From positions 1 through 51,075 of the IMG/VR virus record IMGVR_UViG_3300010401_000013: a DNA stretch of 51,075 nt; one strand, 5' to 3'. Positions within the stretch are counted from its first letter, which is position 1. Every line of letters starts with the position of its first letter. This DNA comes from a virus (Duplodnaviria > Caudoviricetes). Below the pieces are notes generated by a model. It made no database searches. It worked only from the letters and a program-made list of their open reading frames with translations, and had not been told where the DNA came from. Shown piece after piece: positions 19,504 through 42,043 of this stretch. The position numbers were made by a program, and so were the translations under genes.

Positions 19504-19520
19504 AGCATCAAGTATGCCAA
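19504..19520 (-). promoter_or_regulatory. sigma54 (-24/-12) promoter for the capsid unit
   Basis: TTGGCATACTTGATGCT (GG-N10-GC), intergenic, points at the capsid gene. Confidence 0.8.
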
Positions 19521-19554
19521 GGTAGCTTTGAGCAACTGACTTTGGAGTTGAAAA

Positions 19555-20820
19555 TTACTCTATTTCACCTTTCAACCGCCTAAATGTATCCTCATTGATT
19601 TCAGGCACGACCGACTGTTGCCCATTAGTCGTCCTGCTTGCTCCACTATTCGCTGCTGTCGCTGTTGGTCCTGCTTGTCGAGCATTCTGTTTACTTACCG
19701 CAGCACCATTTTCTTTGTTCCTCAGCAATTTCACCATCTCCAGAGACTCCATCGCCAAGGTTGCCATATGCACGGCAAACGGCCATAGAACATTCTGCTT
19801 GCTGACTCCAATCTTCAACATTTCCGTCTCTACCGCCGACAATTTCTTCTTACCATCGTCCGACTTGTAGATGTCTTTGCAGACAAAATCGATTGCCCGC
19901 TGGACATTCTGTTGAACTTGGGCATTCTGTTGCTTGTGTTGGTTGACGAATCCATCAAGCTTCCCTTGAAGTCCTTGCTTGTGTCCACTAATTGCCGTCA
20001 AGTTTCGCAATAAGGTGATTTCCGCCTCAGGACTCGCTACCTGTTTCGGTCCTTGGACGATTCCACCCTTTCCATCGTCATGCAGGTTTGTCCATTCTTT
20101 CCCGTTCTTAACATTCGTCAATTGCTGAACGTAATGAGCCTCCACTTTCTCAGCGGTTGTCAACTCGTTTGTCAACTGTCCAAATTCTGGGGTTAGTACA
20201 TAAGCATTCTCAGCCTCATAGTAAGATCGTTGTGCCTCCTTGCCGTCAAAAGACTTGACCTTGCCCTCTAATTCGGTTGCTTTCGCCTTAAGTGCCTCAT
20301 GCTCGACTTTCGTCTTCTCATACTCTTTCAACAATGGAGCAACCTTCGAGAAGTCATTGTTATGCAAAGACTTTGCAACCTCCAGCAGGTTTCCCGACAA
20401 TCCTGAATAGTCTCTTGCAGACTGTTTTCCTGTCGTTACTTTAGGTGGCTGAGACTGTTGCTGCTGCCCTTTACTCTTGTCCTCAGGTGTGCCCTCAGGT
20501 GTATCCTCAGACAGGCCGTCGCCAAGGAGTTTCTTCATCCGCTCCAAGCCTGCATCTTCGCTATTTTCCGTTTCTGGATTCTCGTCGAGAGTTGCCTGTC
20601 GCTTAGGGGCTTGGTCAGTGGTTACTGGTGCATTCTCGGTGGTTGTTGTGGTTGCTTCTTGTGATTCCTCCTCACCACCTGTCCCATTCTGCATCTGTGC
20701 GAATGATGTTGCAGAGGTGGACGAGACTGGTGTTGACTTACTTCCACCTGCCGCTCCAAGTAAGGCTAGCGGTCCTGAGGCTGCTGCCGGCGCTGCTTGA
20801 TTACTGTTGTCGTCTGGCAT
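19555..20820 (-). CDS. Scaffolding protein (putative)
   Basis: Acidic disordered N-terminus plus coiled coil; between portal and capsid genes. Confidence 0.65.
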   Translation of the reverse strand: MPDDNSNQAAPAAASGPLALLGAAGGSKSTPVSSTSATSFAQMQNGTGGEEESQEATTTTTENAPVTTDQAPKRQATLDENPETENSEDAGLERMKKLLGDGLSEDTPEGTPEDKSKGQQQQSQPPKVTTGKQSARDYSGLSGNLLEVAKSLHNNDFSKVAPLLKEYEKTKVEHEALKAKATELEGKVKSFDGKEAQRSYYEAENAYVLTPEFGQLTNELTTAEKVEAHYVQQLTNVKNGKEWTNLHDDGKGGIVQGPKQVASPEAEITLLRNLTAISGHKQGLQGKLDGFVNQHKQQNAQVQQNVQRAIDFVCKDIYKSDDGKKKLSAVETEMLKIGVSKQNVLWPFAVHMATLAMESLEMVKLLRNKENGAAVSKQNARQAGPTATAANSGASRTTNGQQSVVPEINEDTFRRLKGEIE

Positions 20821-20823
20821 AAG

Positions 20824-21120
20824 TTACTGACTTTCGATTAGGTCTGAGGTTCCTGTTTTGATTTGTTTGATACACTCCTCTAAGGTTGCTGCTACCGTCA
20901 CTGCACGCAACAATGCTAAATGCTCATGCTGTCGCTTGGAGATTTCAACCATCCGTTTCTGCTTTGTCACCAATATGCTTTCTAGTTCCCGCAACAACGC
21001 CTGACAACCTTCCTGTGCTAGAAACTGCTTACGCAGAAGGTTGCGGACTTCCTGAGGTTGGGACGTTAGTGGACTGGTTAGATGCTGGACTTGCTCCAGA
21101 GTTGGATTGCTGTTGACCAT
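20824..21120 (-). CDS. Hypothetical small helical protein after portal
   Basis: 98 aa; synteny. Confidence 0.5.
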   Translation of the reverse strand: MVNSNPTLEQVQHLTSPLTSQPQEVRNLLRKQFLAQEGCQALLRELESILVTKQKRMVEISKRQHEHLALLRAVTVAATLEECIKQIKTGTSDLIESQ

Positions 21121-22957
21121 TTTGTTGATTAGGTTGTGGTTGAACTCCTGCTAGCTGTTGGGCTGCCTGTATCATCTGTTGCACTTGTTGCACTTTGTCA
21201 GGCATGATCTTGGCAATATCAGGGAGCATCGCCTGAACAACTTGTGACAGTGCAAGCAAGGTATTCTTCATCATGTCACCCTGTTGCAACAATAGCGCAA
21301 AATCTTTGCCGTCCTCTGGCAACAGGAGTTCCAGAAACTTCTGCAAGTATGACGAGACGATTGTTGTTCCCTGTATCATTGGCCATGCATTTGCCATTTT
21401 CGTCAAGCGATCCTGACGCTTGATGACATCGGAGTCGCCTGCTGCAAGGACTCGATAATGCTGGGCAAGGACCATTTGGTCATTATCAATTAACAACTCT
21501 GGCTCTGTCTTGCCCGGAAGTGTTGTCATCACCTTCTTGCCAACCAGATAGATTATATTCTGCTGCGCCAAGTTTTTTGCAATCTTGAAGATAAACGTAT
21601 ATGCTTGGTGGATGAAGTTGCTATACATCGATATGCTGATACCGTTCAACGACTGCGTATCCTCCACACTAGCATCTACTTCTGCTGCCGTTGGTCTTGT
21701 CCTTCCCGTTTTTGACTGCAAGGCTGCCGTTGCCTGTCCTGCATCTTGCATCTGATTGGTCCTGCGCAATTGCAAGAACCTCATGAAGTTGGGGTCAGAG
21801 GGCGGAAGATTAAAGAATCCAATCTTCTTGTTGTAAACTAATCCTGTCCTGATTTTAACAGAGGTCTCCTTCAATGCCGATCCCTGCGATTCTGGGTCGT
21901 CAAGGTATGCATAGACACCGGACCCACGCACGAAGTTATTGGCTAACGCTGACATTCCTGTCGTCTGAAGTTCTTGCTCAAACTCCTGCAAGAAGACAAT
22001 TCCACGCGACAATCCCAATTCCTGTTGTGAGGTCTGGTAATATTGATATGCGAAGTAGGGTAATTCTATCAGACCTACAGGTTGCCACTGTTCTTGCTGT
22101 GGAACTGGCGGAACTCCAGGTAGGGGTAGTTGTTGTGCTGCCTGTTGTGCCTGTCCAAACTGTGGATTTGGAATCTTGAATCCTAATTCCACCCGTTGAG
22201 GTTCACGCAACCACTTCTTAGCATCTCCATCTTTCGAATACCACAGGCTGTAGATCTGATTACCGTCGTCGCTATTCTTGTAGGTTACTTTATAGACAAT
22301 GAACAGGAAAGTCAGAAAATCCTGCTGTTCTTCACGACTTTTCACTAAAGCATCCACAACTTCCTGTGAAAATCCAAACTCTACCACCTTTTCTTGCAAC
22401 TGATCGGCGGTATATCGATAGATGCGAATAACACAAGAATTGTCATCCATCTTGATTGCTCGACGGTTGTAGATGAAATCTAGGGGCGAAACAAACTCAA
22501 GTGCAAGCTTCAGAGGTTTCGTCTCATCGTAGACAACTTCTGCAAATGCAATTCCGTGTGACAATCCTGCGTCGATGATCTTATAATGTTCTGTCAACCA
22601 TCCATTATATTTGCATCCTGTGTTGAATGCTGTTTCCAAAACCGCAGGATCATCGTCGGGAAAGTGGACGTTATCGAGTTTTACCAAGCGTGGACCAGAA
22701 AGATAGCTCAGAAATGCCGGAAGTTCTCGACGAATGGTGCTATCGATCACCCTGTCGGGAATCAACGTCTCGTCACTCAACAACCGACCATTCACTCGCT
22801 CTTCCTCCACACTAACATCCACAAACCTGGTGTCGTTCTCGCTTCGATAGACAGGTTCCACCTGTGTTATGAAATCAGAAATCATCTGCGAGAACTTCTT
22901 GGAGGACTTGTCGTAATCGAAAAGCTTCATGGCTGTTAATTCTTCAATTGCTTCCAC
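21029..22957 (-). CDS. Portal protein
   Basis: 642 aa after TerL; HGIAFAEV, RPTAAEV motifs; Q-rich C-terminal tail typical of P22-like portals. Confidence 0.75.
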   Translation of the reverse strand: MEAIEELTAMKLFDYDKSSKKFSQMISDFITQVEPVYRSENDTRFVDVSVEEERVNGRLLSDETLIPDRVIDSTIRRELPAFLSYLSGPRLVKLDNVHFPDDDPAVLETAFNTGCKYNGWLTEHYKIIDAGLSHGIAFAEVVYDETKPLKLALEFVSPLDFIYNRRAIKMDDNSCVIRIYRYTADQLQEKVVEFGFSQEVVDALVKSREEQQDFLTFLFIVYKVTYKNSDDGNQIYSLWYSKDGDAKKWLREPQRVELGFKIPNPQFGQAQQAAQQLPLPGVPPVPQQEQWQPVGLIELPYFAYQYYQTSQQELGLSRGIVFLQEFEQELQTTGMSALANNFVRGSGVYAYLDDPESQGSALKETSVKIRTGLVYNKKIGFFNLPPSDPNFMRFLQLRRTNQMQDAGQATAALQSKTGRTRPTAAEVDASVEDTQSLNGISISMYSNFIHQAYTFIFKIAKNLAQQNIIYLVGKKVMTTLPGKTEPELLIDNDQMVLAQHYRVLAAGDSDVIKRQDRLTKMANAWPMIQGTTIVSSYLQKFLELLLPEDGKDFALLLQQGDMMKNTLLALSQVVQAMLPDIAKIMPDKVQQVQQMIQAAQQLAGVQPQPNQQNGQQQSNSGASPASNQSTNVPTSGSPQPSA

Positions 22958-24606
22958 CTGTTACGTGTGGAGGAGTTAGATCGTGAGTTGATTAATGTTC
23001 CGAGATTCAAATAGCAGAGTTGCTCTTGCTTATGCGTGGATTGGGAAGACTTCAAGTATCGCGACCAAGCTTCTTGCGTGTCACGTTCTTGCGTGGATAC
23101 ATGGGTATCTACCACTTCTGCCGTTCCCACAAAAGCATCCGGCTTCACATTCGCATACGCGAGAACATAGGCATCCGCGCGGTCTGGTGATCCATGCCCG
23201 CGTAATTTTGCATCAATCTTTGACTCCAAACTCATGACGCCTGCGTCTGACGGCTTGTTGAAATACCTGTTGCTCAACTGGTCTTTCAACGTCTCGTCAT
23301 GCTTGGGGATGATTAAGGTTCTGTGTTGTAGATGCAACTTGACGTTGTAGTATAATTCTATTCCGCGGTTCCTGAACCTTGCTGGATTAGCTGCTTTAGA
23401 CTCATTCCGCAACCTTCTAATTGGCCACCCTCTATCTGCAAGCATGGTAATCAGTGCTCGTCCTAATCCACCCTCATCACCGTTCACATTATCGGGCACA
23501 AGACCTTTTGCCCGCCACTTATCAAGAAACGCCGCAAGCCTATTGACTACGTAGTTTGCGTCCTTGTTCCTGAAGAACTCTACGTCAACTACCATGTTGC
23601 CATCTATGATGTATCCTCCGCATTCATCTCCACCAATCGACAGGGAGAAGTCAATTCCTGCACGTAAGATTCCCTCACCTTCTCGCTTGTGTGCTGGTGG
23701 ATGTAGGATCAAGTCGTCAATTAACGCCCTACTGATTACTGTCGTTTCCTCCTGTGAGGTGAACTCACTCCAGAATTGGCTACGCAATATTGCATCTCCT
23801 GCACCGTAATATCCTTGATCGGCTTCTGCTTTCTCTCGTGAGATGTGGGGACATTCATCTATGGTCACCTTGCGAAATGAATACTTCCACGCTTGTCGTG
23901 GTTGTCGCATCTCTATCGCATCTCGATAGTGTTTGTAGAAATCTCCACCTGTGGAACCTGCTGACGACACTTCTATCCAGTAGTTGTAGGTGCATCGATT
24001 CAGTCCCCGGAAGTTGCCTGTTGGGATGCCCTTGGCTTCGTTCAAGACGATTGCACAGTCTCGTCCTGGGGAGTCGTCAAACGGATGGTAACCTTCCGCT
24101 TTATTTGCCTCGTCTGTCACGAACATGTAAATCTCGCTGCCTGTCAAGGTGCAGATAATATGCTGCTTTCGTATGCGGAAGAACTCGCCACCCATGTTCT
24201 TGTTGATGCATTCGCATAGCCTTACGATTCCTGGTTCAGTCTGGGTATTCAGCTGCTTGAAGGAACCTGACGTGATGATGCATCGACTACGGATTTTGCA
24301 ACAGGCGAACCATACAGCGAATAAAGCGATGCAATAGGCATCCTTGCCTGAGCCATTTGCTGCAAGTAACAAGAACTTGCACGGGTCCTCAATGCTAAAC
24401 GGCTGCTCACAGATAAACGTGGAGATTTCCTTCTGCCAGTCGTAGAGGTCTTTCTTATGAGTAGCCAATTCCGGCAATGCCCAAATGCCCAATTCTGCAT
24501 AGCTGGTGAACGCCAGTGGTGCATACTGGTTGCCTATCTCACCAAGAATCTCTCGATACTCGTCGTTCGAGAATTCTGTGGTAGTTGTTGTGTAGTCGGC
24601 GAGCAC
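22936..24606 (-). CDS. terL: Terminase large subunit
   Basis: Walker A AANGSGKD, EGYH, Walker B VLNEAKG; nuclease motifs AGIDFS, DEGGLG, SPDRADA. Confidence 0.92.
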   Translation of the reverse strand: MLADYTTTTTEFSNDEYREILGEIGNQYAPLAFTSYAELGIWALPELATHKKDLYDWQKEISTFICEQPFSIEDPCKFLLLAANGSGKDAYCIALFAVWFACCKIRSRCIITSGSFKQLNTQTEPGIVRLCECINKNMGGEFFRIRKQHIICTLTGSEIYMFVTDEANKAEGYHPFDDSPGRDCAIVLNEAKGIPTGNFRGLNRCTYNYWIEVSSAGSTGGDFYKHYRDAIEMRQPRQAWKYSFRKVTIDECPHISREKAEADQGYYGAGDAILRSQFWSEFTSQEETTVISRALIDDLILHPPAHKREGEGILRAGIDFSLSIGGDECGGYIIDGNMVVDVEFFRNKDANYVVNRLAAFLDKWRAKGLVPDNVNGDEGGLGRALITMLADRGWPIRRLRNESKAANPARFRNRGIELYYNVKLHLQHRTLIIPKHDETLKDQLSNRYFNKPSDAGVMSLESKIDAKLRGHGSPDRADAYVLAYANVKPDAFVGTAEVVDTHVSTQERDTQEAWSRYLKSSQSTHKQEQLCYLNLGTLINSRSNSSTRNRWKQLKN

Positions 24607-24882
24607 TTAATTATTCGTCCAGAAGGATAGTGTCTGGTTGGTCAAGAGATGGTCGTGATAGGCATTAGTCAACTGCTGCCAGTATTTCTCTGGAATCAGT
24701 GGAATTAACGTGTGCTCCCATTTCAATGCCAGTTGATTCGTTAGTTTTAACATTTCTCCCGGCTTCACATACACTATCGTAAGATTCTTTGACTCTGTCC
24801 AAGTGATGTCACTGCTCTTGGTTGCTGCTGCAATTGTTGACCCAAGAATTAGACTGGCTACCAGTAATTTTGTTTTATTCAT
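24607..24882 (-). CDS. Small exported protein
   Basis: MNKTKLLVASLILGSTIAAA leader from ATG 24882. Confidence 0.5.
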   Translation of the reverse strand: MNKTKLLVASLILGSTIAAATKSSDITWTESKNLTIVYVKPGEMLKLTNQLALKWEHTLIPLIPEKYWQQLTNAYHDHLLTNQTLSFWTNN

Positions 24883-25000
24883 ATTGTCGTTAGCACGAGA
24901 GAAAACCAACTCAGTTTGTTTCTCGAAGTGTGTGTTCATGGATGACTCTCTCACAAGCATCCGTCCTCAAGGTCCCTCCTTCAACTGAGTTGGTTTAAAA

Positions 25001-25177
25001 TCAAGGCAGGTAACCCTTCACAGCCCACGCAAACATGGTGGTTGTCGCTAACCACAATGGCGCATAAATCCAGATTGGCCACCGGGGTTTGTCATGCTCA
25101 ACCAAGTCTGCTGAAATGATGAATAGCATGCCTGTCACGAAAGTTTCGCAACCTAAACAGAAGCAGAATGTCAACAT
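25001..25177 (-). CDS. Small membrane protein
   Basis: Two hydrophobic segments; ATG 25177. Confidence 0.45.
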   Translation of the reverse strand: MLTFCFCLGCETFVTGMLFIISADLVEHDKPRWPIWIYAPLWLATTTMFAWAVKGYLP

Positions 25178-25178
25178 A

Positions 25179-25310
25179 TCAATATCCCATCCATTTAAGT
25201 ATCTTCCAAATGAGAGTTCCCACAAGACCAACAATCCCAATGCAGCACAATACTGCAACCAAGAATGTCCAGAGCTTTGCTCCTTGATAGATGTCGTGTT
25301 GGGTGGGCAT
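25179..25310 (-). CDS. 43-aa single-TM protein (not in ORF track)
   Basis: MPTQHDIYQGAKLWTFLVAVLCCIGIVGLVGTLIWKILKWMGY. Confidence 0.5.
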   Translation of the reverse strand: MPTQHDIYQGAKLWTFLVAVLCCIGIVGLVGTLIWKILKWMGY

Positions 25311-25314
25311 AATG

Positions 25315-25974: not shown

Positions 25975-25978
25975 CTTA

Positions 25979-26242
25979 TTATGCCTCCGCTCCTGTCCAC
26001 TGCTTAACGTCTTCCACCTTCAACCCCACCGGTTTTACCACACTTACCGCTCCCGCCAAGTCACCCAGGCCGTTGCTCTTCTTCATTATTCTATCCACCT
26101 GTTTCTCTGTTTCCCTCTCACACTCTTTTACCACTTCCACTATTTCAGGCCTCTCCCAAAACTCGTCCATCGCCCGCCTAACAATCTCCCTGCTCGCTTC
26201 TACCACCATCCCACAAATTTCTTTCTCTCCAGTTGTCAACAT
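25979..26242 (-). CDS. Hypothetical protein, first gene of the late operon
   Basis: ATG 26242 lies at the predicted sigma54 +1. Confidence 0.5.
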   Translation of the reverse strand: MLTTGEKEICGMVVEASREIVRRAMDEFWERPEIVEVVKECERETEKQVDRIMKKSNGLGDLAGAVSVVKPVGLKVEDVKQWTGAEA

Positions 26243-26253
26243 GCTCACATCTG

Positions 26254-26270
26254 AGCAATATCCCTGCCAG
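26254..26270 (-). promoter_or_regulatory. sigma54 promoter heading the late operon
   Basis: CTGGCAGGGATATTGCT, near-consensus with TTGCT. Confidence 0.82.
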
Positions 26271-26564: not shown

Positions 26565-26590
26565 TTGGCACGGGTGGAGCGCAGGTTGCT
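26565..26590 (+). promoter_or_regulatory. Two overlapping sigma54-like promoters
   Basis: TTGGCACGGGTGGAGCG and, 9 nt later, GTGGAGCGCAGGTTGCT; both GG-N10-GC; the second predicts +1 near 26601. Confidence 0.55.
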
Positions 26591-26600
26591 ATGTTAGGTC

Positions 26601-27050: not shown

Positions 27051-27097
27051 TCTTCTCAACAGTCGACATGAAGTCGACTGTTGAGCATGACTCTATG
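27048..27097 (+). repeat. Structured pre-ATG element, copy 1
   Basis: GAGTCTTCT-[hairpin]-AGCATGACTCTATG. Confidence 0.75.
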
Positions 27098-27981: not shown

Positions 27982-28533
27982 GTCAATCGAACAAGAGCTT
28001 CTTGTGAATACAGGAGGCTCCTTTCGGTTTACTTCAACACTCAATAACATGATAACCATCACCATTACTAACGGCGTGGATACTTACACAAAAGAAGTTG
28101 CTCCTGCGGAGATTGACGAAGTCATTGCCTTCTGTGCTCTTGGATTCTGGCGGATTGTCGCGGTGAACGCTTAAAATTCCACGATGCCTACCGTGGCGAC
28201 GGCCTCCTGGGTTTCTTAGTGGTTGTGTTATGAATCCACATCGTGCATTGGAACGGAACTTGGTGATTCTTCTGCTACTATCTAGCGTTCTACTTGCCAT
28301 TAAACTCCTCTCATGATTCTCAAACGCAAGATTCACCCACCACGCAAAATCACCAGAATCTTTCCACAACGCACAACTGTCTATTACTTTCCTGTTAGTT
28401 GGACACTTGATGAGAAATTGGCTTTCGTTTGCAAGCGATGGCCTCGAAAAGTTGTAGGATTAAGACCAAAGACGCTAGAAATCTGGTTGAAATAGAATGA
28501 GAAATTAGCCCTTTCATAAAACTTATCAAGTTG

Positions 28534-28870
28534 TTATGCCATTTTATGGCCTTCTTCTTATTCTTTATCTTTTTTATATATTTTTTTATATTTTTTTTCT
28601 TTTTTAATAACTTTTTAGCAGGAAGTTCTTGGTGAGACTTGATTTGATAAAGTGGCATAAAGTGGCATAAAACGGTGTTAAATCGGCATAAAATGGCATA
28701 AACATAGATAGGGAAAAAGAAAGAAGTGATAAGGAGAGATAAAGACATAGGATGGAATGTGAAAAGGGGTTAGCAGGAATTTAGCAGTGTGGTAGTGGTG
28801 ATTTAGGAATGTCTTCTTTTTCCATAAGATCTATAGGCCAATTTATGCCCAATTATGCCAGTTTATGCCA
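28534..28870. repeat. Putative replication origin: GGCATAA iterons plus AT-rich tract
   Basis: Direct copies at 28654, 28664, 28685, 28695; inverted copies at 28534, 28843, 28853, 28863; T-rich run ~28552-28616. Confidence 0.65.
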
Positions 28871-28957
28871 CTTCCCGGGCGGGAATGGCTGAAAAGGTCG
28901 TGCTAAAAAGATATGAGAAAAGAAATGAATCATAAGGCGGAGATAAAGGATGCATAA

Positions 28958-28974
28958 GTGGCATGATAAGTGCT
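28958..28974 (+). promoter_or_regulatory. sigma54 promoter
   Basis: GTGGCATGATAAGTGCT, intergenic, upstream of the 29066 gene run. Confidence 0.75.
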
Positions 28975-29065: not shown

Positions 29066-29338
29066 ATGAGAACAATCTACAAATATCCAATAGCTAGCAG
29101 GGACCAACAAACCATCCAGATGGGCCACAATGCAAAGCCAATTGCTGTGCAGTTTCAGCATGGAGTATTGTGTATTTGGGCAGAGGTGGAGAATCATCCA
29201 TTGTATGCAAAACTTCCAACAAAAGTGACGGTGTCCATCTACGGCACTGGACACCCACTACCAGACGAAAGCTTGGAAGAGCGGTATCTTGGAACGGTGC
29301 AACAGGATGGTCTAGTTTGGCATGTTTATACGTTATGA
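29066..29338 (+). CDS. Conserved phage hypothetical protein
   Basis: IYKYP...CIWAEV...YGTGH...YLGTVQ...VWHVY pattern recognised from phage proteins. Confidence 0.65.
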   Translation: MRTIYKYPIASRDQQTIQMGHNAKPIAVQFQHGVLCIWAEVENHPLYAKLPTKVTVSIYGTGHPLPDESLEERYLGTVQQDGLVWHVYTL

Positions 29339-29516
29339 ATGAAAATAATCTACCAGTGGTTGAATTCACAATGTGGAAATCAACAGGAGGCTACAACATC
29401 AAATGTGTTTGCCACTCACGAGGATACTTGAAGATATGGAACTACATTCCAGCCTTGAAGCTGGCATCAGCAATAATCGAGAAAGTCTATAAAGCTATTG
29501 AAAACTCCACAGATTT

Positions 29517-29795
29517 ATGAACCCACCAATTAACCTACCACTCACTATCCACGTCACGCAAGAGGACATAGACGAGGGAGTCCAAGAAGATTGCGAGAGA
29601 TGTCCAGTGGCAAGGGCAGTAGAACGAGCAACGGGCATTTCAACAGTTGTGCAATTTGAGAGAATCTCTGTTAACTGCCAAAACAAAGTAGTATTCGTAA
29701 CACCAACATACGTCAGAATATTCATCAAGGCATTTGACGAAACAAGACTCGTAACACCATTCAGCTTCACCCTAACCGAGAATGACCGCGTATGA
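29517..29795 (+). CDS. Hypothetical protein (paralogue of 33586..33864)
   Basis: VTQEDIDEG...CPVARAV. Confidence 0.6.
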   Translation: MNPPINLPLTIHVTQEDIDEGVQEDCERCPVARAVERATGISTVVQFERISVNCQNKVVFVTPTYVRIFIKAFDETRLVTPFSFTLTENDRV

Positions 29796-30046
29796 CAACC
29801 ACCACGTTAATCACCATTCTCAAGCAACTTCCCGAACAGGAAGTGACAACAGGATTGTTAGCGGCATATGGAGTGCTGAACAATCCACAGGAGGAGTTGG
29901 ATGCTGAGTTTAAAAAACTTGAAGGAATGCTCTCGGGTGACGACAGGCTAATGCCTGGTAGAGAATCAGACTTTGTAAAGTCTCTTTCGAAGGTTAAGCA
30001 TCTTCGGAAGTTCATTGAGAATATTAAATACAAAGCGACAACATGA
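29792..30046 (+). CDS. Hypothetical protein
   Basis: ATGA overlap with the upstream ORF. Confidence 0.55.
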   Translation: MTTTTLITILKQLPEQEVTTGLLAAYGVLNNPQEELDAEFKKLEGMLSGDDRLMPGRESDFVKSLSKVKHLRKFIENIKYKATT

Positions 30047-30254: not shown

Positions 30255-30271
30255 CTGGCATGCAACCTGCT
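30255..30271 (+). promoter_or_regulatory. sigma54 promoter
   Basis: CTGGCATGCAACCTGCT in the 30220-30294 intergenic gap. Confidence 0.8.
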
Positions 30272-30294: not shown

Positions 30295-30804
30295 ATGAAA
30301 GACAAACAAACTATAGACGCAACAGGTGTCAAGATGCACAAGGTGGAGTTGACAGATAGGGAAGTCACATTCTTAAAAGACGCAATACATATTGTGATGG
30401 AGACAGAAACAGGAACATTTCTGTGTGGTCTAGAGGAATGTGTGAACATCCTAAAGAAGCTTGAAGACAGTATCAAACAAAAATCTCCATCCAAACCTCT
30501 CCGTTGGTTTCTCTACAACCAAAATAATTCAGGTAGAGAATTCGTCAAAGACGATAAAGTCGATGAATATGTCTTCATTGAGGCACACGGCGCAACGGAG
30601 GCAAATGCTCTCGCAGAGAAGCTCGGAATCTATTTTGATGGCTGCCAGAAAAAAATAGACTGTTTTTGTTGTGGAGATAGGTGGACAGAATGTTGGGTAG
30701 ATGAACATGGAACAGAGACAGTGGAACTCTACGGCAAGCCACTAGACGCCAATAGAGCAGGACGCAGCAAAATCTGGAATTACGAGACGTTGAGGAAACT
30801 CTAA
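30295..30804 (+). CDS. Conserved phage hypothetical protein
   Basis: YNQNNSG...FIEA...GIYFDGC...DCFCCGDRW motif. Confidence 0.65.
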   Translation: MKDKQTIDATGVKMHKVELTDREVTFLKDAIHIVMETETGTFLCGLEECVNILKKLEDSIKQKSPSKPLRWFLYNQNNSGREFVKDDKVDEYVFIEAHGATEANALAEKLGIYFDGCQKKIDCFCCGDRWTECWVDEHGTETVELYGKPLDANRAGRSKIWNYETLRKL

Positions 30805-31119: not shown

Positions 31120-31136
31120 CTGGCGATTAATTAGCA
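31120..31136 (+). promoter_or_regulatory. Weaker sigma54-like promoter
   Basis: CTGGCGATTAATTAGCA (GG-N10-GC), intergenic, upstream of 31185. Confidence 0.45.
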
Positions 31137-32192: not shown

Positions 32193-32279
32193 TTTCCCAA
32201 CCATAGGTAATGCTACGACACACCATGATCCAGCATGCATGTCCGGAATATGAGCATAACCGGCTATGGTTGGAGTTAG

Positions 32280-32375
32280 GCGCACATAGTTCAACGGCAG
32301 AACGTAGAAGTCCGAGACACGAAAGTGGAGTAGGCATCCAAATGCTGAATGTCGGTTCGATTCCGACTGTGCGCG
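32280..32375 (+). tRNA. tRNA-like RNA with aberrant anticodon region
   Basis: Acceptor GCGCACA/TGTGCGC, D-arm GTTC-AACGGCA-GAAC, T-arm GTCGG-TTCGATT-CCGAC; 46-nt middle lacks a canonical anticodon arm; no encoded CCA. Confidence 0.6.
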
Positions 32376-32464
32376 GTGATTTACCCAACATCAATGAAAC
32401 CAACAACCCACGTTGTGGACTTGCTGAGTGCAACTTGTTGGTGTTGGGTTCTTCTTAAAATATT

Positions 32465-33307: not shown

Positions 33308-33312
33308 CAACT

Positions 33313-33864: not shown

Positions 33865-34453
33865 CCAACCACCATCCAAGCCATACGAGGCATTTCCTGA
33901 GGACATTCCTGTCACCATAGAACGAGCAGGAATCGGAACGGCAACCGACATCAAGACACAAGGATTGCCTTTGTGTGTGGTTTTAAGGATGCTGATGAAC
34001 AAGTCGGGGCATTTCATTTGGTCAGCGGTCTATGATGCCCACGACTTTGTGAAGGTGGACGTGAAACTGGCGAAAGAATTGGAACGACTAGACCCAGATG
34101 AAACCTTGCTGCACGTCCAGTGGGAAGACTTTGAGGGGAAACCAATCCTGTTTCACGATAAGTGGAGTGACCGAGTGATCCCGAATGTTGCCTGCGTCTG
34201 GCACATTCATGCTTGGCGAACATCAGTTGCACGGTGGCTATGGCAACAACATGCGTCCGAAGCACAACGACAGGCAAGGTTTCAGGAAGTGGAGGCGTAT
34301 AATACGTTCGTATCGTTAATCGAGAAACAAGATGGGATTTCCACCAAACAAGCAGAGGAAATGGCAAGGTTCATCATCAAAGGAAAATACAAACCTATGG
34401 CACGAGTTTATGGTTGGGATTTAGAAGCGAGGAAGGAGATTGAGAGGGTATGA
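33857..34453 (+). CDS. Hypothetical protein
   Basis: 198 aa ORF in tiling. Confidence 0.65.
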   Translation: MSNQPPSKPYEAFPEDIPVTIERAGIGTATDIKTQGLPLCVVLRMLMNKSGHFIWSAVYDAHDFVKVDVKLAKELERLDPDETLLHVQWEDFEGKPILFHDKWSDRVIPNVACVWHIHAWRTSVARWLWQQHASEAQRQARFQEVEAYNTFVSLIEKQDGISTKQAEEMARFIIKGKYKPMARVYGWDLEARKEIERV

Positions 34454-34937
34454 ACAAAAGAAAATTGTGGTTAATAATTACCTGGTGGGTTCTGCTAGGA
34501 CTATTACATGTAGGATTGCTAGTCACATCCGGATTCTTTATTGTCAAGTTTCTACTACTGGCAATTAAGTTTATGGAAAAGTCAATCCAATGAACAACCT
34601 GCCGCCTGAAGGCATTCCGCCCAAATACGAAGAACAAGATAACCTTTGGTATATGGCGATTTGGTTGATTGCGTCAGTGGTTATCGCAAGCGTGTTGTTA
34701 GTTTTGTTTTTCTCGTTATGAAACGTATAGCAATCGACACATTCATACTATTCTGCTTGTCACTAGCAATGGCGTGTTTAATTATCTTTATACTCCACCT
34801 TGCTGGATGTCAATAGTATGAAAGAACTAGATTTTCTGCGTGCAATCCGAAGTGAACTGCAAGACATCAAGTTGCTGTTAATCATTATAGCTGGCTTTCA
34901 GTTCTTCACTGTAGTAGCAGTCCTCTTCTACAAATGA
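34450..34937 (+). CDS. Four coupled hydrophobic micropeptide ORFs (34450-34593, 34590-34721, 34718-34816, 34818-34937)
   Basis: Manual translation; ATGA overlaps; each has a long hydrophobic stretch. Confidence 0.6.
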
Positions 34938-35464
34938 AACTCTTCTTCTTGTCACTCAACCCACAACAAGCAGCGGAAATGCTGGACGACAGGAACCTGG
35001 AAACTTGTTGTGCGGAACAGTGGAAGTGGTTGCCGGATGTAGAACTGGAAGTTAACAGACCTAGAACCAAGTCTGAGGATTGGGTAAGGGTAACCTTAGA
35101 AAATCGTGTAACACTAGGCATCTTCTCCTCATATTGCCACCTAGAATTTAAATACCGCAACAACACGTGGCACCATCAAGAACCAAAATTTAACTGGTAT
35201 TTTAGCCTACTGTGTAAGAAAGCAGACCACGAGCATTTGCCTGTCGTTATGCGTGTAGTGGTTCCTCAAGTGGAACAAGATGTCAGGAAAGCCTTTCGAG
35301 GCCAAGACATCGCCAAAGCCTACCAGCAACATTATCTGCATTCGGCAGAGAGTTGGAATGCTGTGTGGACCAAGCGTGAGGTTCCAGAATTTTACAGACA
35401 GCATCTAGCCGAGACTCAAATGATAAGAATGAAGAATCAACGAATGACTTTCGCGATAAACTAA
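34934..35464 (+). CDS. Pyrimidine-dimer DNA glycosylase (DenV)-like protein, divergent
   Basis: N-terminus MKLFFLSLNPQQAAEMLDD and C-terminal AYQQHY...WTKREVPEF resemble the family; catalytic residues not confirmed. Confidence 0.5.
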   Translation: MKLFFLSLNPQQAAEMLDDRNLETCCAEQWKWLPDVELEVNRPRTKSEDWVRVTLENRVTLGIFSSYCHLEFKYRNNTWHHQEPKFNWYFSLLCKKADHEHLPVVMRVVVPQVEQDVRKAFRGQDIAKAYQQHYLHSAESWNAVWTKREVPEFYRQHLAETQMIRMKNQRMTFAIN

Positions 35465-35469
35465 TAAAT

Positions 35470-37362
35470 ATGGACCTCCCCAAAAACTTTGACTTGTCCT
35501 TGCTGCCACCTGAGAACCCTGCGTTGCAATCTAATCGCCTAGAACGATTTCAGTATAACGCATCAAACAAGCTTTGTTATGCCTTCCTCGTCGCCGGTAA
35601 GTCTGCCATCCAGCTAATTGGTGGAACCGGCGTAGGAAAAACATGGATAGGTGGCAACTTCCTGGCACGCCTGAAAGCAGCAGGCAAGGATCGTGCACCA
35701 CACAATACATTCACACCTTATCCTTTTTGGTGGATAACCACAGCAAACTGTGTGGAACCGGTTCGTAGGGAACTCACCCAAGGGTTTGGCTTACAAGAAT
35801 TCGATGACTTTTGGGTAACCAACTACGATCAACTCCGGTCAAAAGAAGGTGAGAAGTTCTTCAGCGAGAAGACCGTAGTGCGAGATGGCGTAGAGGTTCT
35901 TGAAGTGGTTGTGCAGCATCGTCTCCTTCCCCGTGTAATCATCATCGACGAATCCCAGAAAGTCAAGAATCCAAAAACCAAGCAGCATCGATACATTCAG
36001 GCGATAATCAAACTTCCCAGGGAGATTCGCCCATGGATCATCTTCATGTCGGCAACACCCTGGACACGGGTGATTGACGCTAAGTGTTTCGTGACAGCAT
36101 CGGAGATTCCATTGCTTGGCTTCCCCGTAGATGATAGCCATTGGGATGAAGTCTCCGCAAATATCTCAACCGACGGTGACCCAATGCTGCATTCGCCGAA
36201 GGCAATCGGGACACTAAGGGATTTGAGTGAGGATTGGATCATTGACATCCCAACCATTACCGGTAAGTATCGTGCCTACAACTCCTGTAAGTTGATTGAC
36301 TTTAAGAATGTGGAAAGCCGGGCAAGGTATCTTGCAGCTTGGGAGAGGTTCGAGCAGAAGTGTGCAAAAATGGGGAGAGATACACCTAACGGCCACTTCG
36401 AGGAACTTGTGGCTTTGGGGCAATTCAGGCAAGCAGCGGAATTGGAACGTGCAGAAATCTTTGCGGATGAAGCTGTTAGCAGGTTGGCCAAAGACAACAA
36501 GTCCATCATCATTGCCGCCGCTTTTCGCGGAACCATTGCACGCTGTGTCCGTTATATGATTAAGAAGCATGGCGTCAAGCGTGAGGATATATCTCTTATC
36601 TGGGGAGGCGACGATTCCTTTGAGCAATCTGGTCGGTTAACGCAGAAGGAGATCATGGACTACGGGTTTCGGATTGCTAAGGGTGAGAAACTCCCCGAAG
36701 CTATCTGGCGAAAGCTGAATAAGGAATTGGCCACAGCAGATGAGGATGTCCAAGAGATTAAGGAACTGGCGGGTGTAAAGTTAGACTTAGGCAGCCAATC
36801 CCGAGAACAACGACAACGGGAAATTGACAGGTTCCAAACCTCTCGCACGAGGATTTGCCTCTTCACCCAAGCATCTGGTGGAACTGGGGTTTCCCTACAT
36901 CACACCAATCAGTGGTTTGAGGTATTCTACAAGAAGCATTTCACTTGCTTAAATCCTACCGAAGCACCAGAGCATCGGGAATATCGATCGAACGCTACAG
37001 GCAAGGTCTTTCGCTCTTATCCCAGGTATGTGATGGTGACGCCCACATATTCCGGACAAGACTTTGTCCAGACACTTGGACGAGGGCATCGGTCAATGTT
37101 TAGTTTGTCAGACACGTATCAAGATGTTTGCTGGTTCCGTAATACAAAGGAAGAGGATGTCATGGATATTGTCCAGACAAAATTGCATTGCCTATCGAAA
37201 GCCATCAAGCAACGAGAAACGTGGCATGACGTTCTGCGTAAGCCCAAGAAGGAACGGATGGTTGATCCTGCGGAAGCTGCCTTGAAAGCTGTGAATGAAG
37301 AATACATTGCAGCAGATGGAGATGTTAACGAAGGAGAGAGTGAACAGGAGGAGAATGAATGA
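35470..37362 (+). CDS. Superfamily 2 helicase
   Basis: [37 protein letters not shown]. Confidence 0.88.
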
Positions 37363-38108
37363 ATGTAATTGACACCCCAATAGACCCACGAACCTATAAT
37401 CCCCAAGTCCACGAAGACTTTGCTCGTGGATACTTGAACAAATTAATTACCGCCGATCCTGAAATGCAGAAACAGAAACGGATTGCGGAGAAGCTGGCAG
37501 GCCTGTCCGATCCTGTCCTGATTCTTGGAGAGACAGGCACAGGAAAGGAACTCTTAGCGCGAGCAATGGGTGGAATCAGGCATCCATTTGTATCCGTGAA
37601 CTGTGCAGCAATCACCGAATCCTTGGCAGAGAGTGAACTCTTTGGACACAAGCGTGGATCGTTCACCGGGGCAATCGCGGATCATCAAGGGTATTTTGAA
37701 CAAGCAGCAGGAGGTTGCATATTCCTAGATGAAATCAATAGCTTGCCGTTGAACATGCAAGCGAAATTACTCCGTGTATTAGATGGTGGCGAATACCGTA
37801 AGGTGGGTGCTGAGAAGGTGGAGAAGATTAGTTGCCGAATAATTGCTGCCTCAAACTATGTTAGCCTAACTCATGCTGATTCTCAATTCAGAACTGATCT
37901 TTATTGGAGATTGGCCACATATTCAATCATAACGATTCCGCTATGGAGAAGGGAGCAGGATGCCGTTAACTATATGTCTTCACAAGGGATGTCTGGACTG
38001 GATTTGACAACAGCTTTAAGTGACACCAGAGTGTTTAAGTCAGGCAACTACCGTGAAATGTTCGCGTATGTGAAACGCTGGAAATTTGAAAGGAGTTTGA
38101 GTCTATGA
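37359..38108 (+). CDS. Stand-alone sigma54-dependent transcriptional activator (bEBP AAA+ domain)
   Basis: [68 protein letters not shown]; no receiver/sensor domain, no C-terminal HTH. Confidence 0.95.
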
Positions 38109-38458
38109 TCAGTCACCAGTTTGCAGAAGGGATAACCAAAAGTGGAAAATATCCAGAAACACAGGCATGGAAAATAGCAGAGGAATTGGACCTAATATTA
38201 GTCTGGAGTGAGTATCCTGGAGTTGTAAGATTCCATGGATTGGTAAATGACGACAAGCATTGTGTGGTTGGGGAAAGGATAATTAAATTCTACCTACCGG
38301 AAGCTGGGCAGACTTTAACCTATCTTCAAGAACGTAGAGTGGGTGGAACCTTTCTGACCGTTGCTGCCGACTGTTCTACAGGAAGATTCATAGTCGCTGA
38401 GTCTAAAGAATATCAGTCAATTGGAGTTGTTCTAAATAAAAGGAGTTTGAAGATATGA
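38105..38458 (+). CDS. Hypothetical protein
   Basis: ATGA-coupled to the activator gene. Confidence 0.55.
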
Positions 38459-38801
38459 CAGAAGAACAGTATCAGGAGATTTTGAAGTTGAGAGATGCGG
38501 CAATAGAAGAAGCTGACGACATGGATTATTTCACTGGCCGAGCAGACGCCATCGAATCTGTGATGATAATTCTCGATAAACCGCTACCACCACGACGCGA
38601 CTAAATTTAAATATGACAAAAGAAGAATATGATGCAGAATTTCTAAGGCTGACGTCAGCACCAATTACCCATCCATTTTGGGAAACGTGCAGAGCAGAAG
38701 TTAACGACCTTAGAGAGAAGATTGGATACTCTCCAGAACTTGCGAGGTTTGAATATTTAGCCAAAGCAATTGGATACAGACTCGGATACGAAACCTAACC
38801 T

Positions 38802-39377
38802 ATGCCCCACTCCTACAAAAATCGACGAGCAGCAATGGAAGTCCAAGAATGGGTGGACATGGTTCTCGCCGAACCTGGTGCAGAATTCGAGATCAACCCA
38901 CTCGAAAAGAATATGAACTTGGTGTCTCTCCAAACTTATATTTCCGGTGGCTTCTCCTACATGCGAGAACAAGCTAAGTCACCCAAAGAGCGTGCAGAAA
39001 TTGACAACATGCGACGACGTATTGTCATCAAAAGGGATAAGGATAAGTTGATACTCACCGCAAAACCAGATGGATTCAATCGTTCATTGTTGAAACGCCG
39101 TGGAAGCGGCGCTCATATGGTGATAGATGGGCATGCGAAGTCGCATAAAGTGGAGCAACCAGAACCAATTGCTGGAACTGTATTTGACATCATGGAGTTT
39201 GCAACCAAGTTTCAGACATTTTACGAATCCGCGAAGGAGAACGAGGAGATGGTAGTCGTATACGATAACTACCTAACCGGAGCAGACAAGCAGGCGATTC
39301 ATGATTTTCTTGAGTCGTCAGAGAGTTTCAAGTGCGTGGTGGATAGAAACAAAATAACCGTGAGGAGGGTAGCCTAA
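38802..39377 (+). CDS. Hypothetical protein
   Basis: 191 aa ORF. Confidence 0.65.
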   Translation: MPHSYKNRRAAMEVQEWVDMVLAEPGAEFEINPLEKNMNLVSLQTYISGGFSYMREQAKSPKERAEIDNMRRRIVIKRDKDKLILTAKPDGFNRSLLKRRGSGAHMVIDGHAKSHKVEQPEPIAGTVFDIMEFATKFQTFYESAKENEEMVVVYDNYLTGADKQAIHDFLESSESFKCVVDRNKITVRRVA

Positions 39378-39515
39378 TATGAAAGTCAAAGAACTAATTG
39401 AGGAGTTGCAGGCGTTGGAGAAACCGGAGGCTAAAGTAATTTTCTATGGATATGACTTCCAATATGCGATTGACTATGTAGCTTATGATCCAAAAGAGAA
39501 CACAGTTGATCTTCA

Positions 39516-39740
39516 ATGACCATCGAAGAATTCCTTGGACTTTCCGCAGACGACTTCGCACGAATGTCCGACGAAGAAATCATGACACACTTGCAACCAT
39601 ATCTTGCTGCAAGCAGGCCAGCAGAAGGAAAGAAATTCGCCAGCAAGGATCAAATCGTGACCACCCAACGAACGAACAAACGAAAGAATATGATGAGTAT
39701 GATTGAAGGATATTTAAAAAAGCATGGAGAGCCGCTATGA
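39516..39740 (+). CDS. Hypothetical protein
   Basis: 74 aa; coupled to the next ORF. Confidence 0.55.
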   Translation: MTIEEFLGLSADDFARMSDEEIMTHLQPYLAASRPAEGKKFASKDQIVTTQRTNKRKNMMSMIEGYLKKHGEPL

Positions 39741-39931
39741 CATCAATAACCTGCGACGAGTGCGGAAAAGTTATCGAAGGTTTATCTGGAATTCCAACAC
39801 AAGAAAGGTCAGTGAGGCTAAAGCTTAGAGGCGAGGTAACTTTTGAACTAAAGGTCAAGAAAGAGAATGCTGACATCTGTTGGCCTTGTGCTAAGATGTT
39901 ATTGGTGAAAGTTTTTTCATCTATACAATGA
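39737..39931 (+). CDS. Small Zn-ribbon protein
   Basis: CDECG...ICWPC. Confidence 0.55.
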   Translation: MTSITCDECGKVIEGLSGIPTQERSVRLKLRGEVTFELKVKKENADICWPCAKMLLVKVFSSIQ

Positions 39932-40857
39932 AACCCACCATCCGCATAGACGCCTCATCCTTAGTTTATTCAGCGTGCATTCGACGCTTCTACTGGACAG
40001 TCGTCGACGGCTATCGAGAAGACGACCACGGATTTGAGAACACTGCGATGCATTTGGGATCAGCCTACCACATATTCGCAGAACACTTCTATAAGGACCG
40101 CTCCGAAGAACTTGCGATGCTTGCTGGTCGAAAGTATTTTCTGTCGAAGCGCTTCAAACCCGGACCCAAGCAGCAGTTTATCGACTTGCCGTATTTTATG
40201 TCGATGTGTGCGCAGGGTGCTTTGTATCTGTCGAACTCTCCATTTCAACCAGTAACGGTGGGTGACCAACCACTAGTAGAAATCAAGTTCGAGATTCCTG
40301 TGCATGAAGATGACCATTGTAGAATCTGCCTTTGTGGCACCATCGATAAGGTAGGGAAGTTCAAGAACGGACCTTACGCAATCGGCGATTACAAAGTTTC
40401 CAACGCAAGCGATCCGCAGAAGTATTTCGAGCAACATAAACTCTCGACTCAATTGCTCACTTACCTTTGGGCCTTACGATGGTTTTCTCGCGAGAAAGAA
40501 GCTATCGCAGAAATCTGGAATGGTGGGCAGGTAGGAATATTCATTGATGGAGTATTCCACCACGGCAAAATTGGGATGGTAGATTTTTTACGCAGTGACG
40601 TTATCTATGTGCCAGAGAAACTGATTGACGCTTATGAGTGCCAACTGCACACAGTAGCAAGAGGACTTGCATTTGCGATGAAGCACAGAGATAAAGTAGA
40701 GCCTCCACCTGAAGGCATTATTAATGGCTCCTGTTCCTCGTATTCTTCACAATGCAAATTCGTTGGTGTCTGTGGTGCAACTGAACCTGAGATTGGAAAA
40801 CTATGCCTAGAACAAAACTTCGTGAAAAAAGAATACAACCCGTTGGAGTTTCGCTAA
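39928..40857 (+). CDS. PD-(D/E)XK (Cas4/AddB-like) exonuclease
   Basis: CIRRFYW, GSAYH, VEIKF, GTID, GDYK, C-terminal Cys cluster. Confidence 0.85.
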   Translation: MKPTIRIDASSLVYSACIRRFYWTVVDGYREDDHGFENTAMHLGSAYHIFAEHFYKDRSEELAMLAGRKYFLSKRFKPGPKQQFIDLPYFMSMCAQGALYLSNSPFQPVTVGDQPLVEIKFEIPVHEDDHCRICLCGTIDKVGKFKNGPYAIGDYKVSNASDPQKYFEQHKLSTQLLTYLWALRWFSREKEAIAEIWNGGQVGIFIDGVFHHGKIGMVDFLRSDVIYVPEKLIDAYECQLHTVARGLAFAMKHRDKVEPPPEGIINGSCSSYSSQCKFVGVCGATEPEIGKLCLEQNFVKKEYNPLEFR

Positions 40858-40864
40858 ACAACTT

Positions 40865-41134
40865 ATGAGCACTCAACTAATGGGACTTCGACGTGATGTT
40901 GCTGAATGCCTTGAGAAATTCTCACGAGCAGCGGCAATGGAATACATGCAGAAGATTCGAGATGAACAACCAACCTATAGCGAGGAGAAAGTTAAGCAGG
41001 TCTTTGACGAATACATGCAACCGTCTGCGGCGGTTCATGCTTTGGCGTTGTTCATTCAAGGATTGATTGATACTAACGGAAAACACATACAACTACCGAG
41101 CAAAGAGTATATCGCTAGAAAGTTTAAGATATGA
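40865..41134 (+). CDS. Hypothetical protein
   Basis: 89 aa ORF in tiling. Confidence 0.55.
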   Translation: MSTQLMGLRRDVAECLEKFSRAAAMEYMQKIRDEQPTYSEEKVKQVFDEYMQPSAAVHALALFIQGLIDTNGKHIQLPSKEYIARKFKI

Positions 41135-41727
41135 ACCTCATAGCATTCACAGGACACTCTGGAGTTGGGAAGGATACGGTGGCCTCAATACTTGAAGAAC
41201 TCATTTCGATACCTGACTTCTGTCCGGTGGTTATTCACGTTAAAACCTCTGACTATATAGCCCTGCAACTGGCTAGGGTAATTAAAGCTGACCAGTTCCA
41301 TATGTTGGAAGCAAGAAGCACGGAGCCTAAATTGATCAGAGAAATCCTCAAGGCTGCTGGAAATTGGGTCAGGGAAATGGAGTTAGAGTATCTTGACAAC
41401 CTAGTCCACTCGACTCTTGAAGACTACCCACTAGGTACAGACGACTACTTCTTGCTCACAGGCATCAGGTTCCCAGACGAGATTACCACCATAATCAACA
41501 ACTACAACGCAACCATCATCCGCATCACCAATCCACGTATCCCAATCCATGATCCATCTCACGATACTGTTAGGCATATCAATGACCTCCCCTACCATTA
41601 TGTCATCCCAAACACTGGCACCATTGACGACCTTCGAGCAACGGTCACCAAGCTCTGGAACGAGACTAGATTCTCGTCAGTTGGACGCCCTCTTATCTGC
41701 CCTGGCACTTGTGGAGACGGGGAATAA
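41131..41727 (+). CDS. Deoxynucleoside monophosphate kinase
   Basis: IAFTGHSGVGKDT, GIRFPDE, IIRI, IPNTGTIDDL. Confidence 0.8.
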   Translation: MNLIAFTGHSGVGKDTVASILEELISIPDFCPVVIHVKTSDYIALQLARVIKADQFHMLEARSTEPKLIREILKAAGNWVREMELEYLDNLVHSTLEDYPLGTDDYFLLTGIRFPDEITTIINNYNATIIRITNPRIPIHDPSHDTVRHINDLPYHYVIPNTGTIDDLRATVTKLWNETRFSSVGRPLICPGTCGDGE

Positions 41728-42043
41728 TCCCCATGCTATTGGTGCTCGTGGTGAGATTAGCGAGTATCAAATAATGCCAGCTTTATGGAGGATTTATTCC
41801 CAAAGACTTGGCACTAAAAATGCTCGGAGTATAGCATCCTCAATTCTCCACGATAACTATGCATGGTATGTTCGTCTATATTCTAGACCACCGTTTCCAG
41901 AAGAACAATACTGTATATGGAATCTGGGAAAAACTAAGTTCAGATGCACAACTAAATCAGGCAAGTTCCTACCTATCAGAATAAAAGTAGTTCAGAATTT
42001 TGCAAATACCTACCATGAGCAACTTAAACGACTTGGCAAATAA
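41549..42043 (+). CDS. SLT-type lytic transglycosylase-like protein (start uncertain)
   Basis: ALALVETGNNPHAIGARGEISEYQIMP...WNLG. Confidence 0.65.
   Translation: MIHLTILLGISMTSPTIMSSQTLAPLTTFEQRSPSSGTRLDSRQLDALLSALALVETGNNPHAIGARGEISEYQIMPALWRIYSQRLGTKNARSIASSILHDNYAWYVRLYSRPPFPEEQYCIWNLGKTKFRCTTKSGKFLPIRIKVVQNFANTYHEQLKRLGK
41808..41824 (+). promoter_or_regulatory. Intragenic sigma54-like promoter upstream of the recombination/replication genes
   Basis: TTGGCACTAAAAATGCT, ~190 nt before ATG 42015. Confidence 0.45.

Follow-up and report, generated by a model that had tools for sequence, protein, structure and literature searches.

How does a phage that carries no recognizable RNA polymerase or sigma factor of its own have its genes transcribed? 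The question is raised by IMGVR_UViG_3300010401_000013, a virus record of 51,075 bp that ends in direct terminal repeats, is rated as 100% complete, was analyzed over its full length and is called the window here. Its genes lie in two divergent arms, the left (99-26248) entirely on the minus strand and the right (29066-51073) on the plus strand, and it encodes a putative activator of sigma-54 RNA polymerase (37359-38108, +) together with repeated copies of the motif TGGCA-N7-TGCT, which resembles the -24/-12 promoter element of sigma-54. An earlier interpretation made without database searches (the sequence-only reading) had proposed that the phage takes over the host's RpoN for its middle and late expression. 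The reading is supported overall by the motif statistics, by agreement with the sigma-54 consensus, by co-occurrence of activator and motif in related genomes and by conserved promoter positions. On the evidence of these sequences it is likely that a phage with neither polymerase nor sigma factor transcribes most of its genome with the host sigma-54 (RpoN) holoenzyme, for which its own activator is the key.

The activator gene encodes a protein of 249 aa, and its start overlaps the stop of a helicase gene (35470..37362, +) that lies directly 5' of it, a pairing kept in relatives (44/80 of the activator loci described below). The protein matches the Sigma54_activat family (PF00158) with E 6.6e-54 and 182.5 bits against a cut-off of 20.2, over profile positions 1-167 of 168, and its AAA+ core (residues 29-203) aligns to the cores of FleQ, NtrC1, PspF and FlrC with E values of 1e-41 to 1e-36. 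Walker A (GETGTGKE) and Walker B (CIFLDEI) are invariant in a 12-sequence family alignment and in register with FleQ. The L1 loop by which such activators contact sigma-54, here GSFTGA, aligns to ESELFGHEKGAFTGA of FleQ with the variant A to S, and its F, T, G and A are invariant across the family alignment. FRTDLYWRL aligns to FREDLYYRL, and G229, N230 and R232 of GNYRE are invariant in the same alignment; these segments we take to be the arginine-finger region (FRxDLYxRL) and to contain the sensor II arginine (GNYRE). With family match, loop and AAA+ motifs all present, the gene is as complete as had been claimed for the AAA+ module of a bacterial enhancer-binding protein (bEBP). No receiver, GAF, PAS or HTH_8 domain is found in it, the Pfam matches being to AAA+ families only; the stretches before the core and after GNYRE measure about 28 and about 17 residues, respectively, and the three-domain build of a bEBP (sensor, AAA+ and helix-turn-helix, HTH) is not present. 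Judged by its sequence, the product of 37359-38108 is a true, minimal sigma-54 activator and not a typical bEBP.

Since the protein has neither a sensory nor a DNA-binding domain, it should be active once made and open complexes from solution without enhancers. The expectation of constitutive, enhancer-independent activity derives from PspF and from the bEBPs that have no HTH. PspF of E. coli (AAA+ fragment 1-275; 2bjw, 2vii, 5nss), whose AAA+ core matches activator residues 44-203 with E ~7e-37, likewise has no N-terminal sensory domain; it is intrinsically active, carries an HTH at its C terminus and is inhibited in trans by PspA, whereas the phage activator has no HTH and no such partner is known for it. 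Cellular bEBPs without a DNA-binding domain include FleT of Rhodobacter (Cereibacter) sphaeroides, FlgR of Helicobacter pylori and CtcC of Chlamydia, which share with the phage protein an AAA+ domain, a GAFTGA-type loop, the missing C-terminal HTH and the expected activation from solution without enhancers. The likeness drawn here is one of general features; FlgR and CtcC keep a phosphorylatable receiver that the phage activator does not have, and all three are chromosomal proteins that control a few host operons, whereas the phage activator belongs to a virus genome.

The proposed targets of the activator stand out clearly in the window. The strict motif TGGCA-N7-TGCT has 7 exact matches on the two strands, compared with a mean of 0.61 in dinucleotide-shuffled sequences (standard deviation 0.82, largest count 3; 0/100 shuffles reach 7). 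All five strict sites of the sequence-only reading are among the seven, with coordinates that had carried one extra flanking base; its list had missed 8180-8195(-) and 13071-13086(-). The enrichment is confined to a spacer of N7: with it the window has 7 matches, with the other spacers from N4 to N10 it has 0-2, and the corresponding counts are 47 versus 3-6 in six full relatives, 122 versus 6-21 in 80 loci around activator relatives and 42 versus 1-8 in 41 loci around capsid relatives. A position weight matrix (PWM) trained on the sites of relatives returns the same 7 sites at a threshold of at least 14 bits, for which 100 simulations give a mean of 0.65 and a maximum of 5; as the core positions of the matrix are fixed by the choice of training sites, its independent information comes from the flanks only. 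Looser patterns add little past the seven strict sites (TGGC-N8-TGC, 10 versus 6.7 expected, with 11/100 shuffles reaching 10; one mismatch to the strict motif, 25 versus 14.6 expected, with 2/100 shuffles reaching 25).

The positions that the motif leaves free also follow sigma-54. The canonical consensus is TGGCACG-N4-TTGCW, and among 74 dereplicated sites of relatives T occupies position 0 in 48, C or T position 6 in 43 and 24, respectively, G position 7 in 46 and T position 12 in 39; in the window, C or T is found at position 6 in 6/7 sites. The 24 nt upstream of the relatives' sites contain no conserved positions, i.e. no conserved activator-binding sequence, and an upstream enhancer is not expected, the activator being without an HTH. 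Two weaker sites that had been proposed in addition score below 9 bits by the PWM and are not supported: 26566-26590 has a 16-nt spacer, and 31120-31136 reads TGGCG-N7-AGCA, with a poor -12 element. The first of these consists, on the plus strand, of the textbook half-sites TTGGCACG and TTGCT, set 16 nt apart and not 7 in the part of the window that is free of strict sites; an alternative reading as TGGAG-N7-TGCT is possible.

The orientation of all seven strict sites agrees with that of the surrounding genes ('-' on the left, '+' on the right), which extends to the two additional sites what had been said of the first five. Although 92.4% of the window is coding and only 7.6% non-coding (analysis gene list), 4 or 5 of the 7 sites lie in non-coding DNA, the count depending on whether open reading frame (ORF) 41549-42043, which contains the site at 41809 and has weak matches in 2/80 activator loci, is real (5/7 by the analysis gene list); the sites at 8180 and 13071 fall within the 3' parts of upstream genes. 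The left arm is covered by four sites at intervals of 5-7 kb. The first, 26254..26269 (-, 14.9 bits, intergenic), heads small genes, the large terminase (22936-24606, -; by tblastn, ~30% identity to Akkermansia phage terminases), the portal (21029-22957, -; a weak SU10-type signal) and g19555. The second, 19504..19519 (-, 17.4 bits), lies downstream of ORF 19555-20820 and, at a distance of 148 nt, upstream of the gene that probably encodes the major capsid protein (17949-19355, -), so its earlier description as standing before the capsid gene holds if that gene is 17949-19355. The identity of the capsid protein rests on Atlas leads and gene order: by features it scores 0.96 against a cluster of which 37% of the members carry SU10_MCP, and by structure it reaches a TM (template modelling) score of 0.57/0.67 to a Phage_capsid_4 cluster. 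A structure predicted separately from 7 sequences is of low confidence (mean pLDDT, the predicted local distance difference test, 31.8). The third site, 13071..13086 (-, 16.7 bits), falls within ORF 13017-13340 at its 3' end, with gene 12587-13000 following at 70 nt and the tail block (g10556, g9495, g7907; all -) behind that gene, and the fourth, 8180..8195 (-, 17.2 bits), lies within gene 7907-9571, ahead of g7522, g6758 and a giant gene of 1444 aa (99-4433).

The right arm is covered by three sites. The window's best, 28959..28974 (+, 20.2 bits, intergenic), stands at the start of the arm and precedes small genes at 29066-30046 (DUF7352 and others). The next, 30256..30271 (+, 19.4 bits), lies 23 nt before gene 30295-30804 (DUF7296), and no other strict site intervenes between it and the helicase and activator genes, the latter 7 kb behind it. 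The third, 41809..41824 (+, 16.7 bits), is 175 nt before the gene of a Sak4-like protein (42000-42869) and also precedes a block with the split PolA, an exonuclease, a ligase and a primase. The sole stretch without a strict promoter is the centre, 26.3-28.9 kb, a candidate for the immediate-early region. Of the proposed middle and late programme, the late genes do stand behind the sites; replication genes do too, so that the sites would not be confined to switching middle and late genes.

Relatives of this phage combine the activator with the motif. The 12-sequence activator alignment, used as a query, found 252 viral contigs (the single activator sequence had found none), from which 80 loci were kept (1.03 Mb, not dereplicated). 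In these loci the strand of the activator carries 102 strict sites versus 4.0 simulated, the other strand 20 versus 6.8, and a strict site lies 24-181 nt past the activator match in 62/80. Fourteen full-length records hold 85 strict sites versus 2 for a reversed-pattern control, in the same layout as the window, with '-' sites on one arm and '+' sites on the other. A second sample was picked by the capsid protein alone, without reference to the activator (41 loci, 40 searchable records). A Sigma54_activat protein is present in 28/28 of its records that are at least 90% complete, the 11 records without an activator match being fragments (14-74% complete), and the 40 records hold 247 strict sites versus 5 for the reversed-pattern control. 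The co-occurrence anticipated by the earlier interpretation is thus seen in every near-complete genome. By contrast, Sigma54_DBD, the mark of the sigma factor itself, was found in 0/29 near-complete relatives searched and not in the window. It follows that the activator belongs to the core genes of the lineage and that the sigma factor has to be provided by the host.

The activators of the capsid-defined relatives are open frames of 202-379 aa, and the best homologues of the window protein in a collection of 5.8 billion proteins have no HTH, measure 266-289 aa and lie on contigs of 34-54 kb. In a tree of 77 rows, made by a quick method with cellular rows that are best homologues and therefore narrow (mostly Planctomycetes), the phage label is clustered (3 changes versus 24.4 in shuffles) and 37/46 phage rows fall on one side with support 86; the window protein, whose branch is long (1.81), is unplaced, and four long proteins encoded on viral contigs (361-532 aa) group with the cellular rows.

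Not only the motif but also its placement is conserved. Six complete relatives share the backbone of the window at 24-45% protein identity, and in 7/7 genomes (window included) the capsid orthologue has a strict site 135-155 nt ahead of it and the operon of small genes, terminase and portal is headed by another. The capsid promoter is found as a strict site in 39/41 capsid loci, with a TTGCA variant in one more (L116, in G027) and none in L105. Sites equivalent to 13071 precede the tail block in G002, G003 and G004, sites equivalent to 8180 precede the block from g6758 to the giant gene in G005, G012 and G013, and a site directly after the activator precedes the nuclease block in 6/6 relatives. 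Conservation in relatives, on which the proposal also depended, accordingly extends to individual promoter positions.

The capsid promoters have further features of their own. In the window a 10-bp inverted repeat (19490-19535, -) brackets the promoter. In several relatives (L102, L104, L108, L109, L110, L122 and L131) the 76-nt folds (-20 to -30 kcal/mol) include pairing between an upstream arm and the -24 box itself. A pair of hairpins recurs in many capsid leaders (L101-L141, ~100-140 nt); each hairpin is preceded by GCTTCTA and has an (A/G)AGGGCAT loop. The pair may be a conserved element in the leader of the capsid mRNA; no obvious copy of it is present in the capsid leader of the window.

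The claim that no phage RNA polymerase or sigma factor is visible also stands, within limits. No Sigma70_r2, T7-type RNA polymerase or Sigma54_DBD match was found in the window, the T7-type negative being a weak one because the PF00940 control was silent in every control genome. The giant protein (99-4433, -; 1444 aa, 1736-2349 aa in relatives) was considered as a hidden RNA polymerase and is unlikely to be one: it has no Pfam, PHROG or PDB match (the PDB search was made with a 4-sequence profile), and an alignment of four orthologues has no invariant Asp among its 85 invariant columns. An Atlas lead to a cluster with LPD39 in 28% of members suggests instead an injected protein of the polyvalent type.

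In the mechanism that we envisage, the host sigma-54 holoenzyme would bind, as closed complexes, the seven -24/-12 promoters, which head the packaging and head operon, the capsid unit and two tail units in the left arm, and three units of small, replication and recombination genes in the right. The 249-aa protein, as an AAA+ ring ATPase, would then open these complexes from solution with its GSFTGA loop at the expense of ATP. Because the activator gene lies 3' of 30256 with no site between, its expression would be subject to positive feedback. Its first round of expression would have to come from an unrecognized promoter, from read-through or from a host activator. The notion that the phage supplies its own key is thus upheld in that the activator gene is confirmed; the gene itself, however, belongs to a sigma-54-headed unit, so that the key would need a start-up step of its own.

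Besides the silent PF00940 control, several observations weigh against this reading. The position of the activator gene behind sigma-54 sites is common to the window and all six full relatives, and with it the start-up difficulty. Promoters of the E. coli sigma-70 type are not enriched between 25.9 and 38.2 kb (15 versus 17.0 expected), an uninformative result, as is that of a terminator scan of the same region (12 versus 10.6 expected). The lineage has no members without the activator, so that the co-occurrence has no negative arm. The promoter after the activator that 6/6 relatives possess is absent from the window, where genes are packed at that place; the window has the site at 41809 before the Sak4-like gene instead. 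Strict sites are absent from 8/80 activator loci and few in G027 (1), G010 (1), G011 (2) and G007 (3). Five loci without the strict motif (L025, L041, L049, L050 and L052) show a recurrent TGGCAC-N6-AGCT, and four of them form an activator clade of their own with long branches; in this recurrent sequence the -12 element may have an altered form that goes with another host sigma-54. Some strict sites of relatives are antisense or deep in genes (G003 46730, G004 7373, G013 22201) and are probably chance matches. Among the sequencing runs listed with DNA of the window there is no RNA run. The sole clue to the host is a weak hint by co-binning: alignment of the capsid protein to species genomes gave one record, L099 (G015, contig C112; 49.9 kb), in a metagenome-assembled genome (MAG) labelled 'Deltaproteobacteria', which encodes RpoN and has 5 of its 21 strict sites on the L099 contig.

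Some of these points would be met if the sites were real sigma-54 promoters fired mainly by host activators, so that phage development would be linked to a host signal and the phage protein would be a booster or late amplifier. As the activator gene lies behind sigma-54 sites, some other starter is needed, and no other promoter type was recognized that could provide it. We nevertheless consider this explanation unlikely: host activators normally need enhancers of their own, the 24 nt before the sites contain no conserved sequence for one to bind, and a gene present in all near-complete relatives is a core gene.

An activator without a DNA-binding domain should act on any sigma-54 promoter, and its chief role might therefore be host takeover, by switching on the host sigma-54 regulon, with the phage sites secondary. 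A constitutive AAA+ domain has been used in just this way to define the Salmonella regulon (PMC3844500), and a preprint on the phage protein Htm, discussed below, proposes host reprogramming by a bEBP-like protein. As a replacement for the use of sigma-54 by the phage itself this is very unlikely, for it leaves unexplained the 7 sites versus 0.61, their orientation and their placement before capsid and terminase genes; it can, however, hold alongside that use.

It is extremely unlikely that something other than sigma-54 recognizes the motif, be it a phage polymerase or sigma that escaped recognition or a DNA-binding protein acting as a dimer, or that the motif is not a promoter but a polymerase sponge or roadblock. 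GCA-N7-TGC is formally palindromic, many of the phage proteins belong to no family, and TGGCATAA repeats near 28.6 kb mimic the -24 box. The consensus, however, is asymmetric and matches sigma-54 at free positions, the sites are oriented with the genes, and they are found together with a protein for which no partner but sigma-54 is known; an invariant Asp is missing from the giant protein, and the iteron-like repeats differ in every relative. Chance, which a short motif first scanned by eye might have suggested, is refuted by the shuffles (0/100 reach 7), the N7-specific spacing and the 247 sites versus 5 of the control in relatives.

The TGGCATAA repeats belong to an iteron-like array near the strand switch (28534-28873), in which a very AT-rich tract (28555-28615) is surrounded by copies of (T)GGCATAA(A), direct ones at 28653, 28663, 28685 and 28694 and inverted ones at 28534-28548 and 28853-28873; ORF 28395-28748(-), which overlies the array, is K-rich and probably spurious. 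Its appearance is that of an operator array or an origin of replication. A role as a sigma-54 element was rejected, as the six relatives have clustered repeats near their own strand switch that are unrelated in sequence, so that its likeness to the -24 box is probably coincidence. Between the second and third right-arm sites, the Rfam tRNA model scores 44.2 bits at 32280-32375 (+; 96 nt, full model length), overlapping ORF 32210-32458; ARAGORN finds no tRNA anywhere in the window, and the element may be tRNA-like with an aberrant anticodon arm. Just 5' of the helicase-activator block, four consecutive small ORFs (34451-34938, +; ~32-47 aa) encode hydrophobic peptides of membrane type; the apparent gap at 34453-34934 was considered as a promoter region and rejected, being occupied by these ORFs.

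Of the remaining genes, one in the left arm (13423-16884, -) encodes a tailspike-like protein that contains a GDSL esterase together with a K1-lyase C-terminal domain, and 19/20 left-arm proteins have no PHROG family. The right arm also encodes small proteins, a PD-(D/E)XK nuclease, a deoxynucleoside monophosphate kinase and, along with the Sak4-like protein, the exonuclease, ligase and primase. Its family-A DNA polymerase is split into 44321-45955 and 48693-49730 (+), ~2.7 kb apart, with the exonuclease, ligase and small genes between the halves, a split common to relatives. Searches of 50,697 phage records, by megablast with 35.0-39.0 kb and by tblastn with ORF 19555-20820, revealed no close cultured relative; in the phage collection the polymerase matches only two distant phages (25-30% identity), and the 65 records matched by the activator have mostly bacterial gene names or are short unannotated contigs. 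The window sequence is present in two soil-metagenome DNA sequencing runs, of which one may be its source.

A literature search (subscription journals and supplements not covered) returned no description of a phage-encoded bEBP with cognate promoters. Phage-made factors that retarget the host polymerase are well established in T4 (gp55/gp33/gp45 and MotA/AsiA) and SPO1 (gp28), which, like the phage studied here, have no polymerase of their own and send that of the host to phage-specific promoters; they supply or remodel a factor of the sigma-70 family, whereas this phage would supply only an ATPase that unlocks a host sigma. Pseudomonas phage YuA has one sigma-54-like promoter (P015), supported by promoter trap and ONT-cappable-seq (PMC10914365, citing Ceyssens et al. 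2008). In the available text of that report P015 is one among many promoters of other types and no phage activator is mentioned, in contrast to the genome-wide set and dedicated activator of the window. The early protein Htm (Gp204) of Mosigvirus AV110 has a bEBP-like AAA+ fold and no HTH (bioRxiv 10.64898/2026.10.06.757011); as described in the accessible part of the preprint, it has no GAFTGA loop and a DD Walker B, unlike the activator with its GSFTGA loop, and it is proposed to act on host genes, no phage sigma-54 promoters being reported there, whereas the window has a promoter set of its own. The components, and the retargeting of host polymerase by phages, are thus known; this combination is not.

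To our knowledge, the transcription strategies described for phages rely on a phage polymerase, on a phage sigma or sigma-remodelling factor, or on host sigma-70 with activators. If the present reading is true, it adds a further strategy, in which the virus supplies only the ATPase key to a locked host sigma-54 polymerase, and the 252 viral contigs with activator relatives and the 28/28 near-complete genomes speak for a conserved design and not a one-off acquisition. It would also provide a natural, enhancer-independent and tightly-off expression system, consisting of a 249-aa activator and 16-nt promoters, and it would make rpoN a predicted host factor for the lineage and imply that infection turns on the host's own sigma-54 regulon. 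More tentatively, and with doubts that for now outweigh our confidence, a lineage of ~50-kb phages may have made host sigma-54 its general transcription system, a self-amplifying all-or-none switch after which sigma-70 would be dispensable; with no later need for sigma-70, such a phage could shut down sigma-70 transcription wholesale. The activator of such a phage would also fire the whole of the host sigma-54 regulon.

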